A stretch of 62,491 bases of DNA, counting the filler. It is 14 parts of 14 records of this genome, joined end to end, with 100 filler letters (N's around TTAATTAATTAA, not from the genome) between each part and the next. Parts side by side here need not be neighbours in the genome. Positions count along the whole stretch, not along the records: positions 16,113 to 22,030 come from SRR15195285_10156; 13 more parts are not named here. The stretch is one strand, 5' to 3'. Of the stretch, positions 4,188 to 22,330 are shown piece after piece (the stretch's first letter is position 1; every line of letters starts with the position of its first letter). The notes below the pieces were generated by a model, which made no database searches, had not been told where the DNA came from, and saw only the letters and a program-made list of their open reading frames with translations. The translations under genes were made by a program, and so were the position numbers.

Positions 4188-4287
4188 NNNNNNNNNNNNN
4201 NNNNNNNNNNNNNNNNNNNNNNNNNNNNNNNTTAATTAATTAANNNNNNNNNNNNNNNNNNNNNNNNNNNNNNNNNNNNNNNNNNNN
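4188..4287. other. Artificial contig-joining spacer (N44-TTAATTAATTAA-N44); first of 13
   Basis: The identical 100-nt spacer, with stops in all six frames, also lies at 9847, 16013, 22031, 25479, 29821, 35020, 39216, 42843, 46456, 50346, 55604 and 58752. Confidence 0.99.
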
Positions 4288-9846: not shown

Positions 9847-10504
9847 NNNNNNNNNNNNNNNNNNNNNNNNNNNNNNNNNNNNNNNNNNNNTTAATTAATT
9901 AANNNNNNNNNNNNNNNNNNNNNNNNNNNNNNNNNNNNNNNNNNNNAGTTGACCCATCATTCCCGGTTCAGCTCTATAGTAGTAGCACGTAGATCTACTG
10001 TACTATGTAGATCTTGTACTGTAGTAGGATTCCGCGGGTAGGCCGGCACCGGAGTGCCGATATGCATAATCATATAACAATGCCATTGATGGTATATGCA
10101 GTATATGGCATACTATATGCTGGCGACTCTACCAGCGTGTACCCCAGCCTGGCGGCAGATGCCAGTCGGAAGTGCCGCGCTGCGCAGATCTCGCCCCAGC
10201 TCCTCGACAGCGCCACTCCAAACGTGCAGGCCAGGAAGACACTAGACAAGGGAGGTAGAGGAAGAGCTGCCGAGATACAGTACAGGTGGGCGATAGAGGT
10301 CGGGGCGGGTGGGGAGGAGGAGGAGGTCAAGCCAAATAGCCACAACCAGTACGGTAGGCTGGAGCCTCACGTCAGGAAGGGGAGGCTGGCAGCAGGCAAA
10401 GATAGGAGATCTACTGTGTGGTAGCAGCACAGCGCGTCCAGCACTTTCTAGGGTTACCGGTGCGGAGATAGGGCCGGGGTCGGCTCCAGCGCACAGTCTG
10501 CCAA

Positions 10505-16012: not shown

Positions 16013-16194
16013 NNNNNNNNNNNNNNNNNNNNNNNNNNNNNNNNNNNNNNNNNNNNTTAATTAATTAANNNNNNNNNNNNNNNNNNNNNNNNNNNNNNNN
16101 NNNNNNNNNNNNAAGCCGATCACAGTGATGTCGGCTATTCCGGCCGGACGCCCAAGTGGAGGGTGAAGACTGTTCCACCATTGTATTCTATCAT

Positions 16195-16479
16195 TTAAAA
16201 ACAACTCATTTCACCATTACTCCTCCTGTCTGCGCGGAAGCGGCTGCGGTTCATCGAGCTCATTGCGAGATAATGGTCGGCATGCAAAGGATAGCGCTCT
16301 GACGCCACTTGCTGCCATGCGCGGGTAACATCACGCCCACCGAAATCCGCTTCAAAGCTGTAATCCTCGAGAACAAATCCGTCAACGTAAGGTATGATCG
16401 ACAGTCGGTCCCCAAGACTCACTGCCAAACCGGTCGTTCGCCCATAACTCAGCAATCCAAGCTCTGCCCCCATCGCCAT
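16195..16479 (-). pseudogene. Divergent actin-like fragment (equivalent to about actin residues 135-200)
   Basis: AELGLLSYGRTTGLAVSLGDRLSIIPYVDGFVLEDYSFEADFGGRDVT..ERY aligns by eye with actin [49 protein letters not shown]..ERGY. The actin N-terminal third is absent. Confidence 0.7.
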
Positions 16480-16509
16480 CGCACGAAAGCATCCTCGACT
16501 CGATCACTC

Positions 16510-19500
16510 TCATACAAGAATGTCGGCCACGTCAATCGCGCTGCCGATGGCCACTTGGAGCTCAGCGATCTGATCTGCGGCGGGAGCAGTGCCGAGGAGC
16601 GTGTGGATGGAGGCCTTGAGACGTGCGGTGCCTTCTGCGCCCCTTCCATCCTTGTCCAAGACGTGCACCTTCAGGTCTCGTAAGCAAAGCACCTCGTACA
16701 GGAACAATCCAAGGTCAGCGATGTAGTCCAAGGCAGACTCGAACGCCGCCTCAGCTTCTTGCGGTCTGCCCAAGAAAGCTAAGCAACGTCCTTTGGACGT
16801 GTGACCCTTCCAATGAGTGATCGGAGCGACCGATCCGGCCTGGGAAAAGTCGGTGCTGATGGCAGCCTCTGCATACAACAACGCTTGATCATACAGCGCA
16901 AGCTTCTCACATACCCACGCAGCCATCGTGAACGAGTTCATGACCGAGTGCATCAGATTTTGACAGCAGTGTGGAAAGCCACCCTTGGAGAAAACGACCA
17001 GGTCCTTGACACTTGGCAACGACGTCGAGATCTCATCGATGCTCAACCCGCTTTCATCGATATCTACCACCAGCAACCATGCCAGCTTCAAGACCCACGA
17101 CCAATGTTCTGCACTGTCGAGGTGTTGACCCATTGTCCTGCGACAGAGGGCAAACAGAGGTAGCACGCAGATAAAATCGGTCAGGATCATTTCAGACTGA
17201 CACAGTGGTTGCATATTTTGCTTACGTATCTCCACGAGGGCGCACAGTTGGAATATAAACCACCATCTTATCGATAAAAGTATCGATCGACTGCCAGTTT
17301 AGACCTGCCTTGCTGAAGAGGGGTCGGCACTGCTCAGAGCGTCCCAATATGTACCCGAATTCTGTCTGGCCAATGGGTTGAAACGTCACGTTTAAGGCCT
17401 CTACAGCTAGCTCGGGATCGTCGACCATACATTCATACAGCTTCAGTGAGCGTTCGAAGCACCGATTTGCAGCCACGAGATTGCCGTAATGAACAGCGAG
17501 ATATCTGGATGGCAGGACCCAGGTAAGACACGGATCTTGGCCACAGGCGATTTCAGTTAGTTTCTTGTGATGTACCTGCACCATGTATGGTCAAATCATC
17601 TGCTGTGCAATGTTCACCACATCAAATACGGGTATCCTCATCTAAGCTTGCGTTTCAAACGGCTTACGTCGTAATTGTAGCGATCGCTTATCCACAACAA
17701 CAGCTCAGCATTTGAACCGAAGATTCCATCCCAGTCAAAGCGCTCGTGACGCAAAGCCATCTCGTAGCATGCGAAACAGGTCAGAGTCAATCCTGCTTGT
17801 AGACGCTGTGTTTCATCTTGAATCACTCGCGCAGCTTTTGAAGCTGCTTCCATCTGCGCATGTAAGATTTAGTTTTTTAAAATATAGATGCGATTTAGTA
17901 ATCTGCGCTATAACTTACAAAGCGCAGAAAAGCCTCTGCAAAAAGGAGTCCATCGTCCCCAATTTCGCCAGTAAATGCCGTCAGGCTTGACGGATAGAAC
18001 AGTGCCATCTCAGTAACAGCTGGAATTTGATCGGCCACTGGGGCGCCCACAAGATATTCCAGGCCTGAGACCGAGTACATCCAGCATGAGTAGTAATGTA
18101 CAACACTGGAGTGCAAGACTGAGTCAACACGTACGCGGCAAAAACCGATAGTCAACCGGGTCAAACTTCGATAGCAGCTGCACCAATACCTCCAGCTCTA
18201 AACGTTCCTCATCTGCGCGATGTTCAGATGCTTCACCAGCCGCCAGTTCTCCGAGAGCATCCATGGCTCTGCGTTCAATCTCAAGCTTCGCAGGTATGTC
18301 ATGACCATCTGTCAAAGCACACCTTCCGGCATTCGCAGCCAGCTTAGCCACGTCGAACTTCCGTCCGTCATCATTCGCCTTCTCCACTAGTTGCAGCAGC
18401 TTTTCGTAGCCGAGAAATCTGCCAGCACTCCTGACGATATCGTCCTGCGGTGTATCTCCAAGCCAATAGTTGATTGCGTGCTGATCGTTCTCCCAGTCAG
18501 AATTCCAGCCATGCTGAATATGCTTGGAGCAGTAATCGCGCACGTAGCGCGATATCAGAGTGTTGCCCGCATTATTCCACTCAGGCGACTTGGAGACGGC
18601 ATCAACTGGCCGAGCGGCACGCAGTAAGTCCACCAGCCTTCGATGAGATTGCCGTAGTTCTTCGTCCGTGTGCTGAGATGCGACGAAGTCGCCAACGATG
18701 TCTGCCGATGGACACGAACAATAAGTTGACGTTGTCAACCAGTTTGTTGTCAATAACTTGGTCGTCACGTTATGACAAGAATGCCATTCGCGAGGTCAAG
18801 GAGTGGAACTCACCGTGCAATGCAGGACGGTCAACTGACCCAAGGACAAGTGACCTGCGAACACGGCTGGTTTGTTACCACGACTGGACTGCCGGCACCA
18901 TTGCACCATTGCACCATTGTAAGACTTACCTGTCGATCAGCTGCTTTATCAAGCGCCGAGTGGTGAGCACGTTGGGACGTTTTCTGAATGTTCCGTCCAG
19001 CTTGGGGACGGCCTCGAACATAATCGCTAATATCAATGGAGGTACCACCGCATCTTCAGGAAGCAGAGCCAGCGCCTTGAACATATGAAGCACGTTCTCC
19101 CGCTGTGGCCCACGGATGCTGTTAAGGCTCGCGCAAATCACAGACTCTTCCACCGTGCGCTCTTTGTCAGCAGACTCTTCCCGCATCATATCTACAATGC
19201 CTTCCCATTCGTCTACTTCAAGGCCCAACCCGATGTCTTGGACAAGTTTGCCCGCTATCGAGATCGATAGAGGCAGGAGCTTGCAGAATTGTACTAGCTC
19301 CCGGGTCTGCGGCGGTACATCGCCGTCAGCACTGAGTCCGGCAGTCGAGAGCAGCATCTCGACGGCTTCCGCTTCTGTAGGCAGCCCGATGGTTACAAGC
19401 TCGGTTCGCATGGAGCTGCTGCTCTGGATCACTTGGTGGACCCGTGAGGACAGCAACACTTTGCCCCCGCTGTCTTCATCGATAAAGTTCAGCAGTTTCT

Positions 19501-21692
19501 CTTGCTCTGGATCCCAGCAATCGTCCAGTACGAGGAGCAACCTCTTCTTCTGCATTGCTAATTGCAAACTTTGCTTACGTTGCGAGTCAGGCTCGTCACC
19601 GGTGAATACGGCACCAGTCAGCTGCTGAAGCACCAAACTTTGCACATGTATCGGCGACGGCGTTTGCCCGAGAGTTACCTGCTCGCATGAATTAGATTCT
19701 CGGAAAATTCAGTGGAAGTAAAATGATGGACGGACGCCTTCTTGGTTTTGATTTCTACTCGGAGGACTAATTTGTCAAAGTACTCACCCATGCGATGGAC
19801 TCAAATTGCTCCCGGACACTGTGTTGCCTCACCAGCCAGCTAGACACTACCGTCTTACCTATCCCACCCATGCCCTGCAACCAGTTTGTTTGCAAACAGA
19901 CCAAAATTCCTGAGCAACACCCGGCAGCGACAGGCCACATGGGTGGCGATTTGATTGTTGCTGTGTTGTTTACCAGAAAGCCAATTCTGTGAGCCTCTCC
20001 GTCGACCAGATGGGAAAGAAGCTCCTTCATGGGCTGAGTCACAAACACACCCAATGGGAGCTCTGGGACATCTGCGGGCACCATTGCTTGGGCGCGTTCG
20101 TCCTCCTTGGACATCATTGCCCGCGAGTCAGGTTGAATTGAGTATGTGTCGTTCTCCTTTTTCAGACGGTCGAGCTCGCCACGTAGATCGCTGACGGAGA
20201 AGTCAGGCGATCCGGACATCTGGAGTTCAAAGTCATCTGACTCGGGATTAGGCGATAGTGCAAGCATTATCTGGCGCATGAGACCGTCAATGCCCTCTTC
20301 TGCCGAAGCCTCATCGGAAATCGGCGTCCACAAGATGCCAGCGGTCAGCAGACCAAGCCACCCGGACGGCGTGTAGTTCTCTTGCACCATCACTGGGACA
20401 ATTGGAATGCCTGTTTGCTGCGCAAACTTTAGCTCCTGCAAAATTTAGCGACGCACAACGGCACGAGAGTGACATCAGGTCTAACAAATATTCGCGCACT
20501 GCTCCTAGCTGCCCATGTCTTCTTCTTCTACTCGAATAGCACGCTCGTGCTAAAAAATGCCCAGTCACGCCCCGAGCGGAACAAAATGAGCATTATGGGC
20601 AAAGGTGGATCGGTTCCTTGCTGAGCTACTCAGCCTGGCAGCTGCGTACTATTATTCCATTTGCATCCACCCCAATGGTAGTGTGTTGCTGCTCAATGAG
20701 ACTAAGGTCAATTGTGAACACCGCAATCCCAAAGTGGCAACGCACCAGCTTGCAGTTGACCGAAGATTCATACTTCTCGGTCATGAATGGGATGATACAG
20801 GCAGCGTTACTGACTCCCTCGGCCATGGAGTCGTAGATGTCGGTTTGCATGCCACCGTCTGTGGGCAGCCGGCGCCACCAGTATGAGCAATTAAATGCAC
20901 ATCATACGAGCTTTTTTGCCAGACCTTTAAGAGGTTAGACGCACCGATGTCCATCCACGTCGGGATGCCCTTTTTGTTCAGCATATCACGTGCGGCTACC
21001 ACCAAGGCCTGGGCGTCCCACTGATATGATAAGATGGCGTGCTTGTCTCCAAATAGGCCTGCTTGCGCGACAGCCACGTTGGCAGTGCCGTAGTGTGCGG
21101 AAACAGGGGTGTCTCTGTCCTTAGCTACGGTCTCACTGTCGCTGAACCCAGCCTTCTCCATGACAAGCGCAATTAGAGCGGCCTTCACGTCATCGGCATC
21201 GTCCGCCTCGTCAATTTTGTCTTCATCAACGCCTGCCTCGGCTGCGCGCTTTTTCAACGCGCGTGGCTTCAACGACTCCAGGTCTTCTGCGAGAGCCGCT
21301 GCTGCCTGTTGGCGTGTGGGGTCGTTCGTAGCTTTCTCGATAATCAGAGCAATAATGGTGGCCTTAACGTCATCAGCGTCGTCTGCCTCATCGAGCTTCT
21401 CTTTGTCCACACCAAGCTCCCGAGCACGGTTTTTGAGAGCACGGGGTTTCAGCGTCTCCAGCTCGTCTCGAAGAGCCTGCGCTTGAGAGGACTTTGCATT
21501 TTCTGCTTCTTGCTTCAAAATAAGGTCCACTAGTGTAGCCTTCACATCATCCGCATCGTCGGCTTCGTCGATCTTGTCCTCGTCGACGCCGACCTCCGCG
21601 GCCCGCTTTTTAAGTGCCCGAGGCTTGAGGGACGAGAGTTCTGTGCGCAGCGCTGCAGACTCCGGCGGGGTCCCCTCCGGAATGGACGCCAT
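16510..21692 (-). CDS. NLR-like STAND protein: three SAP/HeH-like repeats, TIR, NB-ARC (APAF-1 type), helical region and TPR; multi-exon
   Basis: TIR HAILSYQW..WMDI/DGG..SVNCKL/ELKFA (introns 20859-20944 and 20436-20745); P-loop GMGGIGKT; Walker B LLVLDDCW; KVLLSSR; CKLLPLSISIAG (GLPL-equivalent); LH/D (MHD-equivalent, split by an intron near 18815); TPR KGRCLAFLGRPQEAEAAFESAL. Confidence 0.85.
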
Positions 21693-22330
21693 GTGATCCC
21701 TCTGGCAGCGGGCGCTCTCGACTGGCAGCGGGTGCTCTCCCAGCCTCTCTGCAACCCTCGTACCACCACCCAGTACCAAGTAGTTTTACACGGCCTCAGG
21801 AGCAAAATACAGCCGCAAGGCGCAGCGGACCCGGCGCCTCGTGCTCCTCCCCGGGGGGCGGTACGTAGGTGCCCCAAGCGCTCCGTCTCGGGATCCGTCG
21901 CGCCGGCCTCTAGAGGGCTAGCTAGCGCGCGGACTGCGCGCTCATCCACGTCTCCAACGCGCGGTCTCGCGCGGCACGTCTGAACTGGACGTGATCGAGA
22001 CCTTCGGAGCAGGAGGAAGAGGCACGAGAANNNNNNNNNNNNNNNNNNNNNNNNNNNNNNNNNNNNNNNNNNNNTTAATTAATTAANNNNNNNNNNNNNN
22101 NNNNNNNNNNNNNNNNNNNNNNNNNNNNNNTGAGCGGCTAGCAGAAGAGCTAAGACAGTGTAAGGCTGAGACTGGCAACGACGTTGAGATGCGCAGTAAG
22201 CTCGTCCAGAAGGTGGTGGCACAGGCCAAGGTAGCTGGAGGTGCAGCGTAAAAACATTTATCTGACAGACTAATCGAATCTTTGTAAAACGCAGCAGCGC
22301 GATGCTACGGCGCTCGGCCACGAAAGAGCC

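Follow-up and report, generated by a model that had tools for sequence, protein, structure and literature searches.

The window, i.e. the whole stretch of 62,491 nucleotides analysed here, is composed of 14 short contigs split by 13 artificial spacers (N44-TTAATTAATTAA-N44). The contig of interest (positions 16113-22030) is 5.9 kb long and of metagenome type. A spacer at 16013-16112, assigned to neither strand, separates it from an unrelated contig; beyond 16113 lies this artificial sequence and not genomic DNA. The minus strand of the contig carries a complete gene for a TIR/NB-ARC/TPR receptor and, directly behind it, a fragment with similarity to actin, past which the contig ends after 154 nt.

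The receptor gene starts at an inferred ATG near position 21692. Its larger part (17137-21692, minus strand) encodes three N-terminal repeats of ~50 residues, a TIR_2-like region, an NB-ARC domain and helical/TPR-like exons, and the last exon (16513-17136, minus strand) encodes a TPR-like C-terminal domain. The NB-ARC domain scored above its Pfam cut-off (57.3 vs 23.5 bits; 19708-18926), with the P-loop exon reaching 25.7 bits. The split exons of the N-terminus gave no direct Pfam TIR match; they aligned with the Pfam TIR_2 domain of protein P0045 (residues 503-623) at 57% over 37 residues (E 3e-13), and the comparison with the repeats and TIR_2 region of P0045 yielded 38% over 188 residues. 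Among the C-terminal repeats one TPR unit was detected at 21-22 bits, which is below the Pfam cut-offs, and LRR matches were absent. Protein P0010, which has NB-ARC plus TPR matches below threshold, aligned with residues 4-932 of its 933 in six pieces (19868-16516). Fungal and brown-algal STAND proteins of the NB-ARC/TPR type resemble the receptor in their NB-ARC domain and in belonging to a large family, and probably also in an N-terminal signalling domain and helical TPR-like repeats (for fungal NLR diversity see PMC4986451; the brown-algal ROCO paper PMC11378527 mentions NB-ARC and TPR); the receptor differs from them in its threefold repeat followed by a TIR_2-like region and in TPR matches that stay below cut-off. 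The first-pass annotation had described this neighbour as an NLR, with plant NLRs as background; an NB-ARC gene it is, but one of a marine protist and not a plant NB-LRR gene, with TPR-like repeats where plant NLRs have LRRs.

The receptor reading ends with ..DVADILV and a TGA at 16512-16510. Searches with the last exon retrieved 294 homologues, and the best alignments stop 0-4 residues short of the homologues' own ends; all nine homologues that were fetched terminate within 0-2 residues of the receptor stop, at the same motif. By homology, this TGA is the native end of the receptor family. Stop-codon reassignment or read-through was considered and ruled out, as the homologues terminate at the same point. 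A short spacer (16483-16509, minus strand) begins with GAG and a second in-frame TGA (16506-16504), behind which a frame of 102 codons is open (16503-16195), in phase with the receptor and containing ..AMAMGAELGLLSYGRTTGLAVSLGDRLSIIPYVDGFVLEDYSFEADFGGRDVTRAWQQVASERY... Sharing of the receptor's frame has by itself a chance of one in three. Only the 72 codons at 16267-16482 (minus strand) belong to an actin-related (Arp-like) domain, corresponding to residues 1674-1745 of protein P0001, and the tail at 16195-16266 (minus strand) adds 23 unrelated codons and a TAA (16197-16195) and matches no parent protein. An actin-like segment that shares strand and frame with the receptor and lies behind its stop, as annotated at first pass, therefore exists on the minus-strand reading, but its homology is confined to 16482-16267 and does not fill the whole of 16195-16520 as annotated.

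The open frame matched Pfam Actin with an E-value of 1.3e-5 and 24.4 bits (curated cut-off 27), residues 10-70 aligning with positions 129-190 of the 410-position profile. Searches against PDB sequences returned 123 distinct matches at E<=1, the best being an actin (2.8e-5) and Arp1 (4.4e-5). Judged from these scores, the actin likeness is evidently beyond chance. The fragment aligns to residues ~130-197 of actin (family PF00022, actins and Arps), including the GRTTG motif and the GGRD-containing strand; an actin or actin-related protein over the whole fold was rejected at this score and with such partial coverage of the profile. Much closer relatives were found at E-values down to 8e-31 and with up to 84% identity. 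The best of them, P0001, combines WW and PH domains with a C-terminal Actin domain (residues 1554-1923) and is 84% identical to the fragment, which corresponds to the middle of that domain and comprises 72 of its ~370 residues. All five long relatives carry Pfam Actin and none of them NB-ARC; the parent-type proteins P0001 and P0003 pass the Actin cut-off with 133 and 146 bits. When JGI metagenome contigs were scanned with the alignment of the fragment, seven loci were retrieved, with L001 as the sole close relative and L002-L007 as ordinary actin-like matches of 36-39%. In L001, the relative's parent gene continues from ..YL directly into PSIRKWKEAH, a motif that is absent from the window, and homology to P0001 was confined to 16482-16261, nothing else of this protein being found in the window. 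Unlike free-standing actins, the fragment represents about one fifth of the fold, and its true relatives are end domains of WW-PH proteins of ~1900 residues. The designation 'actin' consequently holds as to likeness, but the relatives are multidomain actin-related proteins and not conventional actins. On these alignments, the fragment is a scrap of a large WW-PH-actin-related gene of marine protists.

Contigs of metagenome sequencing runs presented the fragment in two forms, near-identical (~99%) over the 356 nt from 16113 to 16468. These are low-depth contigs (k=31, 2-7x), and one run may be the window's own source. In the parent form, found in runs X1 (record 1, covering 16113-16468) and X4 (record 22, 16292-16468), the segment runs upstream into intact coding sequence of the parent gene and diverges from the window after 16468. 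The reverse complement of this loose end, a 30-letter consensus, translates in frame as ..SVPRLAMRPQ before AELG, as in the parent protein. In the joined form, found in runs X2 and X3, the segment leads into the receptor gene in the same way as the window's sequence: record 10 of X2 crosses the junction with 1016 nt (16217-17232) and one mismatch, and record 14 of X3 crosses it at 16396-16560. Since X2 differs from the window at 16390, it is not merely the same consensus. The coding parts of the two forms differ at two positions (16390 and 16396), both synonymous as read. Gaps in coverage, such as those of X1 and X4 over 16509-16706, were not counted as evidence.

Near-identity to the parent form begins at 16468, and 16469-16482 are weakly alike. 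Upstream of 16468, a 15-nt local match to L001 was equalled by 174 of 5000 shuffles and by 7 of 176 real control windows; an old, frameshifted continuation of the parent gene up to the receptor stop was dropped at this borderline value. On the other side, 16113-16266 (minus strand) is non-coding sequence belonging to a repeat with at least two other contexts. No homology to the parent protein was found in it, it is cut off by the end of the contig, and a GT donor after ..HYL is absent at the boundary between fragment and repeat; it may represent an intron or an inserted element of the parent gene, or the parent form may likewise be broken at this boundary. In X1 and X4, contigs match up to 16249 and then continue with 234 or 255 unlike letters of the same consensus, and record 1 of X1 passes 16249 uninterrupted. 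Indel variants occur at 16176, 16194 and 16199, and X4 has a 42-nt joint that goes back from 16176 to 16135. Across the whole window, blastn with 16113-16600 as query detected neither the fragment nor the repeat a second time. The Rfam search gave a single lncRNA match at chance level (E 0.48), and a repeat search was likewise uninformative.

We consider it probable that part of the organism's own large WW-PH-actin-related gene was copied and, by a recent event at the DNA level, placed behind a complete NLR-like gene, where the fragment remains untranslated. The copy would consist of ~200-216 nt from the middle of the actin-related domain together with at least 154 nt of the parent's downstream non-coding repeat, lying 27-41 nt past the native stop of the TIR/NB-ARC/TPR gene. 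The copy extends into the parent's non-coding flank and still matches the parent form at ~99%, so that it would have originated recently and at the DNA level, by duplication or ectopic recombination. The adjoining repeat probably aided this event, since the boundary 16266/16267 is common to both forms and the contig breaks off within the repeat. The fragment would at most belong to the 3' flank or untranslated region of the receptor gene and would leave the receptor protein unchanged. One of two options offered at first pass, a relic that insertion or recombination left behind in connection with an actin-related gene, fits these data: the same 356 nt lie in parent context in two runs and continue into the receptor gene in two others.

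A processed pseudogene (retrocopy) was rejected, as near-identity to the parent-form contigs extends through 16266-16113, which match no parent protein. Duplicated (unprocessed) gene fragments and gene fragments captured by transposable elements, e.g. by Pack-MULEs or Helitrons, are known classes. With these the fragment shares that it is a short internal gene part copied at the DNA level with non-coding flank, nearly identical to its parent and abutting a repeat of several contexts. Capture by a transposable element may have been involved; in contrast to typical cases, only one side of the repeat is on this contig, which ends inside it, and element termini, a target-site duplication and a transposase are not visible. 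The arrangement of the X3 contig, which joins 16396 back to 17188, is not accounted for by a partial duplicate. The in-phase open frame and the two synonymous differences are contrary to neutral decay; at ~99% identity, too little time has passed for decay.

No run was seen with both forms, which could therefore represent one locus in different alleles or strain variants. In some haplotypes or strains, insertion or recombination at 16468/16469 would then have joined a segment with the receptor gene to the only actin-related gene, and the window would show a disrupted parent gene, or a receptor nested in a very large new intron, with no duplicate at all. X1 and X4 indeed give the parent form alone across 16468, without covering 16509-16706, and X2 and X3 the joined form alone, but a lack of coverage in contigs of 2-7x depth is no proof. 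Taken from the loose end, the parent sequence reads ..CAG|G across the break, a typical intron-gain site, and intron positions of the actin-related gene vary between relatives; the sequence immediately upstream of 16468, however, has no terminal AG there. Moreover, the intron would measure at least 5.5 kb, compared with 65-310 nt for the eight introns inferred in the receptor gene, and the other contig end (21786-22030) lacks an exon of the parent gene. We regard this allelic explanation as unlikely, although it is the strongest competitor of a partial duplicate. Somewhat less likely still is an assembly artefact, in which the receptor's true 3' flank has just a short stretch in common with the parent gene, where assemblers crossed from one locus to the other. 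The contig itself invites this suspicion, being 5.9 kb long, of metagenome type and terminating within a repeat 154 nt past the fragment, as do the abrupt change of identity at 16468 from weak to ~99% and the X3 contig, which departs from the path of the window at 16396 and rejoins it at 17188. Yet Logan contigs consist entirely of 31-mers present in reads, so that reads of X2 and X3, two runs belonging to two studies, must contain the junction 16468/16469; the X2 contig is unbranched from 17232 to 16217 and has its own variant at 16390. Even if assemblers had erred, at least 73 nt of actin-related sequence would truly lie behind the stop.

Two further explanations would ascribe a product to the fragment. 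The gene caller predicts a protein of 94 residues from the ATG at 16479, and the protein collection contains this very prediction of the window (P0156) with a precomputed Actin match, which would suit a small independent gene or one exon of some other gene. Against this, the distance of 27-41 nt from the upstream stop leaves no space for a promoter, the N- and C-terminal parts of the fold are missing, as first-pass inspection had noted for promoter and N-terminus, and a search for proteins similar in length to the 102-residue frame gave one match among six candidates, P0156 itself. A separate gene is the least credible of all readings. Hardly more plausible is an integrated decoy or alternative isoform, produced by a hypothetical 54-nt intron (16462-16515, minus strand) that would extend the receptor by a 68-residue actin-related peptide and the 23-residue tail; such an extension might serve as bait for an effector aimed at the parent protein. 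The donor-like GTATGA at 16515 and the in-frame excision to ..GCAGAG at 16462 are present as first described, the fragment is open in the receptor frame for 102 codons, the donor has a G at +5 like all eight inferred donors, and the shortest inferred intron (65 nt) is near 54 nt in length. The sole in-frame splice nevertheless requires a GAG acceptor, rightly called weak at first pass: it occurs in none of the eight inferred introns, all of which use CAG, and the CAG two bases earlier would give a 52-nt excision, out of frame and with a stop after four codons. T at +4 and A at +6 of the donor are likewise found in none of the eight. Two in-frame stops intervene, the receptor ends where its family natively ends (9/9 homologues), 72 of ~370 residues cannot form an actin fold, and the ~99% identity to the parent form extends to the non-coding flank. 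Relatives were also checked for a fusion of NB-ARC and actin: Actin (E<=1e-4) was found in 0 of 46 long-tailed last-exon homologues chosen among the 150 listed of 294, and NB-ARC in 0 of the 5 relatives of the fragment. The fusion originally suggested thus finds no support.

Plant NLRs are known to carry integrated domains, or integrated decoys, such as the HMA domain of RGA5 and Pik-1 and the WRKY domain of RRS1. The present locus is similar in that the C-terminal end of an NB-ARC gene is followed, on one strand and in one frame, by part of an unrelated host gene (for integrated domains of plant NLRs cf. PMC10561179 and 10.1101/2021.08.23.457316). It differs in that the piece lies outside the coding sequence, is an unfoldable 72-residue internal scrap and is conserved in no relative found. 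Classification as an NLR with integrated domain was rejected in three respects: for a shared frame or transcript, TGA 16512-16510 and TGA 16506-16504 lie between; for a foldable host domain, the score stays below 27 bits; and for recurrence in paralogues or related species, the counts among the listed homologues and the fragment's relatives were zero. That a receptor of a wild marine protist has been caught acquiring an integrated domain, as an evolutionarily days-old, in-phase and population-polymorphic copy expressed as a minor GTATGA...GAG isoform, is very improbable; the donor of the copied fragment would in that case be a host cytoskeletal or membrane-traffic protein. If true, an integrated-decoy-like event would have been found for the first time outside land plants, and a decoy would carry that concept over to marine protists.

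On the evidence, genome rearrangement has probably left an ordinary by-product here, a partial duplicate of a gene next to a repeat, on a metagenome-type contig of limited length; the case also cautions that coincidence of frame at contig ends is a poor ground for calling fusions. As parent and joined forms occur in independent metagenome assemblies, the 3' end of this NLR-like gene appears to be structurally variable in a natural population, and such scraps are raw material for possible integrated domains.

On the minus strand, the last exon (16513-17136) of the TIR/NB-ARC/TPR receptor gene (16510 to a predicted start at about 21692) reads ..AIGSAIDVADILV into a TGA stop (16512-16510), followed by GAG, a second TGA (16506-16504) and 102 open codons (16503-16198) ended by TAA. 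Residues 10-70 of this open frame align with positions 129-190 of the 410-position Pfam Actin profile at E 1.3e-5, with a score of 24.4 bits, below the curated cut-off of 27, and PDB actins and Arp1 match it with E 3e-5 to 5e-4. The actin-like segment that the first-pass annotation placed behind the NLR stop, on the same strand and in the same frame, is therefore real. The shared frame alone is a one-in-three coincidence.

When longer proteins were searched with the actin-like fragment (16267-16482, minus strand), five of 194 candidates were related to it at E<=1e-3 (identity 67-84%), and all five carry Pfam Actin; their alignment with the fragment showed 67-86% identity over 72 columns. The best relative, P0001 (1945 residues), has Actin at 1554-1923; WW, PH in two stretches and, weakly, PX were also detected in it. 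In a tblastn comparison with the whole window each relative gave one match inside 16482-16261, and no further homology to the five was found outside this interval. After ..HADHYL (16267) the frame of the window continues as AMSSMNRS.., which matches no relative, all of them going on with ..IRKWKEA..; a GT donor directly after ..HADHYL is absent. The fragment thus represents 72 residues of an actin-related fold of about 370, and comes from its middle. The single close locus among JGI metagenome contigs, L001 (1138 nt), contains GT-AG introns after ..SIIP, ..GEY and ..FKA and reads uninterrupted through ..SYLPSIRKWKEAH... The window fragment lacks these introns and carries non-homologous sequence where L001 has exon; intron positions thus differ among relatives. 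The parent family is unusual in its organisation: its proteins, P0001 and P0003 among them, run to about 1900 residues and combine WW, PH in two stretches and a weak PX match with an actin-related domain at the C-terminus. It is known here solely from marine eukaryote assemblies and metagenomes.

The NB-ARC domain of the receptor gene scored 57.3 bits (cut-off 23.5), and no LRR matches were found in the gene. Its homologue P0010 (933 residues, NB-ARC and weak TPR) can be aligned along 19868-16516 in six pieces that take in its residues 4-932. The part 5' of this alignment comprises three copies of a charged N-terminal repeat of about 50 residues (..LKPRALKKRAAE.GVDEDKIDEADDADDVKA.., 20781-21692, minus strand), for which no Pfam family was found at E<=1, and exons aligning to the repeat-plus-TIR_2 region of the homologue P0045, in which this repeat occurs twice. 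Eight introns, all predicted, were placed from alignments and sequence, two of them by visual inspection of the sequence (86, 310, 109, 112, 70, 65, 92 and 88 nt). DNA contigs of the metagenome run X4 omit two stretches: 865 nt (19879-20745), between the intron-1 donor at 20745 and a point just short of the P-loop exon, and 91 nt (20853-20945) around the 86-nt intron that separates the two TIR-like exons. These omissions, with short matching sides of 28 and 22 nt, may reflect paralogous genes or else presence/absence variation of exons and introns. A phmmer search of 1.84 billion representatives with the last exon (208 residues) gave 294 matches at E<=1e-3, and in the best homologues the match ends 0-4 residues short of their own C-termini. 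The C-terminal motif ..LG..I....(V/I)L-x lies at the window's stop in all nine homologues fetched, one having two extra residues. The stop of the receptor gene is native to the family.

The in-frame 54-nt excision proposed earlier does not agree with the introns of this gene, as the frame is kept solely with a GAG acceptor at 16462; all eight predicted introns end in CAG and none in GAG. With the CAG at 16464 as acceptor for the GTATGA donor (16515), the excision would be 52 nt long and out of frame, and translation would meet a stop after four codons. The predicted donors are GTGCGT and GTGAGT (two each), GTACGT, GTAAGT and GTAAGC (two); the +5 G of the candidate donor occurs in 8/8, its +4 T and +6 A each in 0/8. 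The suggested search for NB-ARC plus actin fusions likewise returned none: Actin was absent at E<=1e-4 from the 46 homologues with long C-terminal tails, taken from the 150 listed for the last exon, and NB-ARC from the five relatives of the fragment. Three of the 46 (P0045, P0066 and P0094) have, after a receptor-type C-terminal TPR-like domain, an N-terminal repeat and TIR_2. The TIR_2 looks like the start of the next tandem gene, which suggests head-to-tail tandem gene arrays or gene predictions running into the next gene.

Parts of the contig are present in 19 metagenome runs of marine or aquatic origin, which belong to 9 studies; none is on record as RNA. Logan contigs from four runs (X1-X4) of four studies, all of low depth and with one run possibly being the source of the window, were compared with it. 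The joined form was found in X2 record 10 (1016 nt), spanning 16217-17232 with one mismatch, and X3 record 14 (16396-16560). The parent form was found in X1 record 1 (16113-16468, 3 mismatches) and X4 record 22 (16292-16468), which beyond 16468 share one sequence unlike the window; the reverse complement of this sequence, translated by hand, reads in frame ..SVPRLAMRPQ right before AELG, as does the parent protein in P0001. The boundary at which the two forms become nearly identical is therefore 16468/16469. On its upstream side, resemblance to the parent gene of the relative L001 is limited to 15 nt and borderline: shuffles (174 of 5000) and control windows (7 of 176) also reach such a score. 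The placeable coding differences, at 16390 (X2's own variant) and 16396, are both third-position and synonymous. At 16143 all three covering runs (X1, X2, X4) have A; the G of the window is either erroneous or a minority variant.

As a third context, another contig in X1 and in X4 matches the window only up to 16249 and then differs for 234 or 255 nt, and 16135-16199 contains indel variants and a 42-nt joint that goes back. Thus, 16113-16249 is a repeat in at least three contexts, which is why the contig ends at 16113. A bridging contig of X3 leads from 16396 back to 17188. It may reflect a 793-nt tandem duplication that takes in the last exon, the stop and the 73 nt of the fragment nearest to it, or else a chimera at low depth.

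The window consists of 14 contigs of about 3-6 kb divided by 13 spacers N44-TTAATTAATTAA-N44 (4188-4287, 9847-9946, 16013-16112, 22031-22130 and nine more), so genes on either side of a spacer are unlinked. The junction of receptor stop and fragment lies at the low-coordinate end of contig 16113-22030 (5918 nt). As 16013-16112 is such an artificial spacer, sequence to its left is not part of the locus. The GC content is about 49-62% and the genes have short GT-AG introns; the window appears to come from a marine eukaryote whose assembly is fragmentary.

We consider it probable that the fragment arose when part of the organism's WW-PH-actin-related gene was recently duplicated at the DNA level, and that it is not translated with the receptor gene. 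The copy would consist of an exon piece and the non-coding repeat next to it, placed 27-41 nt past the native stop codon of a complete TIR/NB-ARC/TPR gene. To judge from the exon/repeat boundary that both forms share and from the several contexts of the repeat, the copy may have been made through ectopic recombination at this repeat, or the repeat may have carried the piece along. That both forms are alleles of one locus, with some haplotypes carrying the receptor segment as an insertion in the parent gene, seems unlikely. An assembly walk between two loci is somewhat less likely still; X2 record 10 and X3 record 14 cross the junction of stop and fragment the same way as the window.

The first-pass alternatives were an integrated decoy and a relic. 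A true decoy or isoform is very improbable: the three features of NLR decoys that were tested, a shared reading frame, a foldable domain and recurrence in relatives, are all absent here, and the arrangement is like plant integrated decoys in position and phase alone. A small separate gene has hardly any probability. The relic reading fits, as a product of duplication or recombination with an actin-related gene, in line with the two metagenome forms. We class the arrangement with duplicated gene fragments and pseudo-exons, of the kind often present close to repeats.
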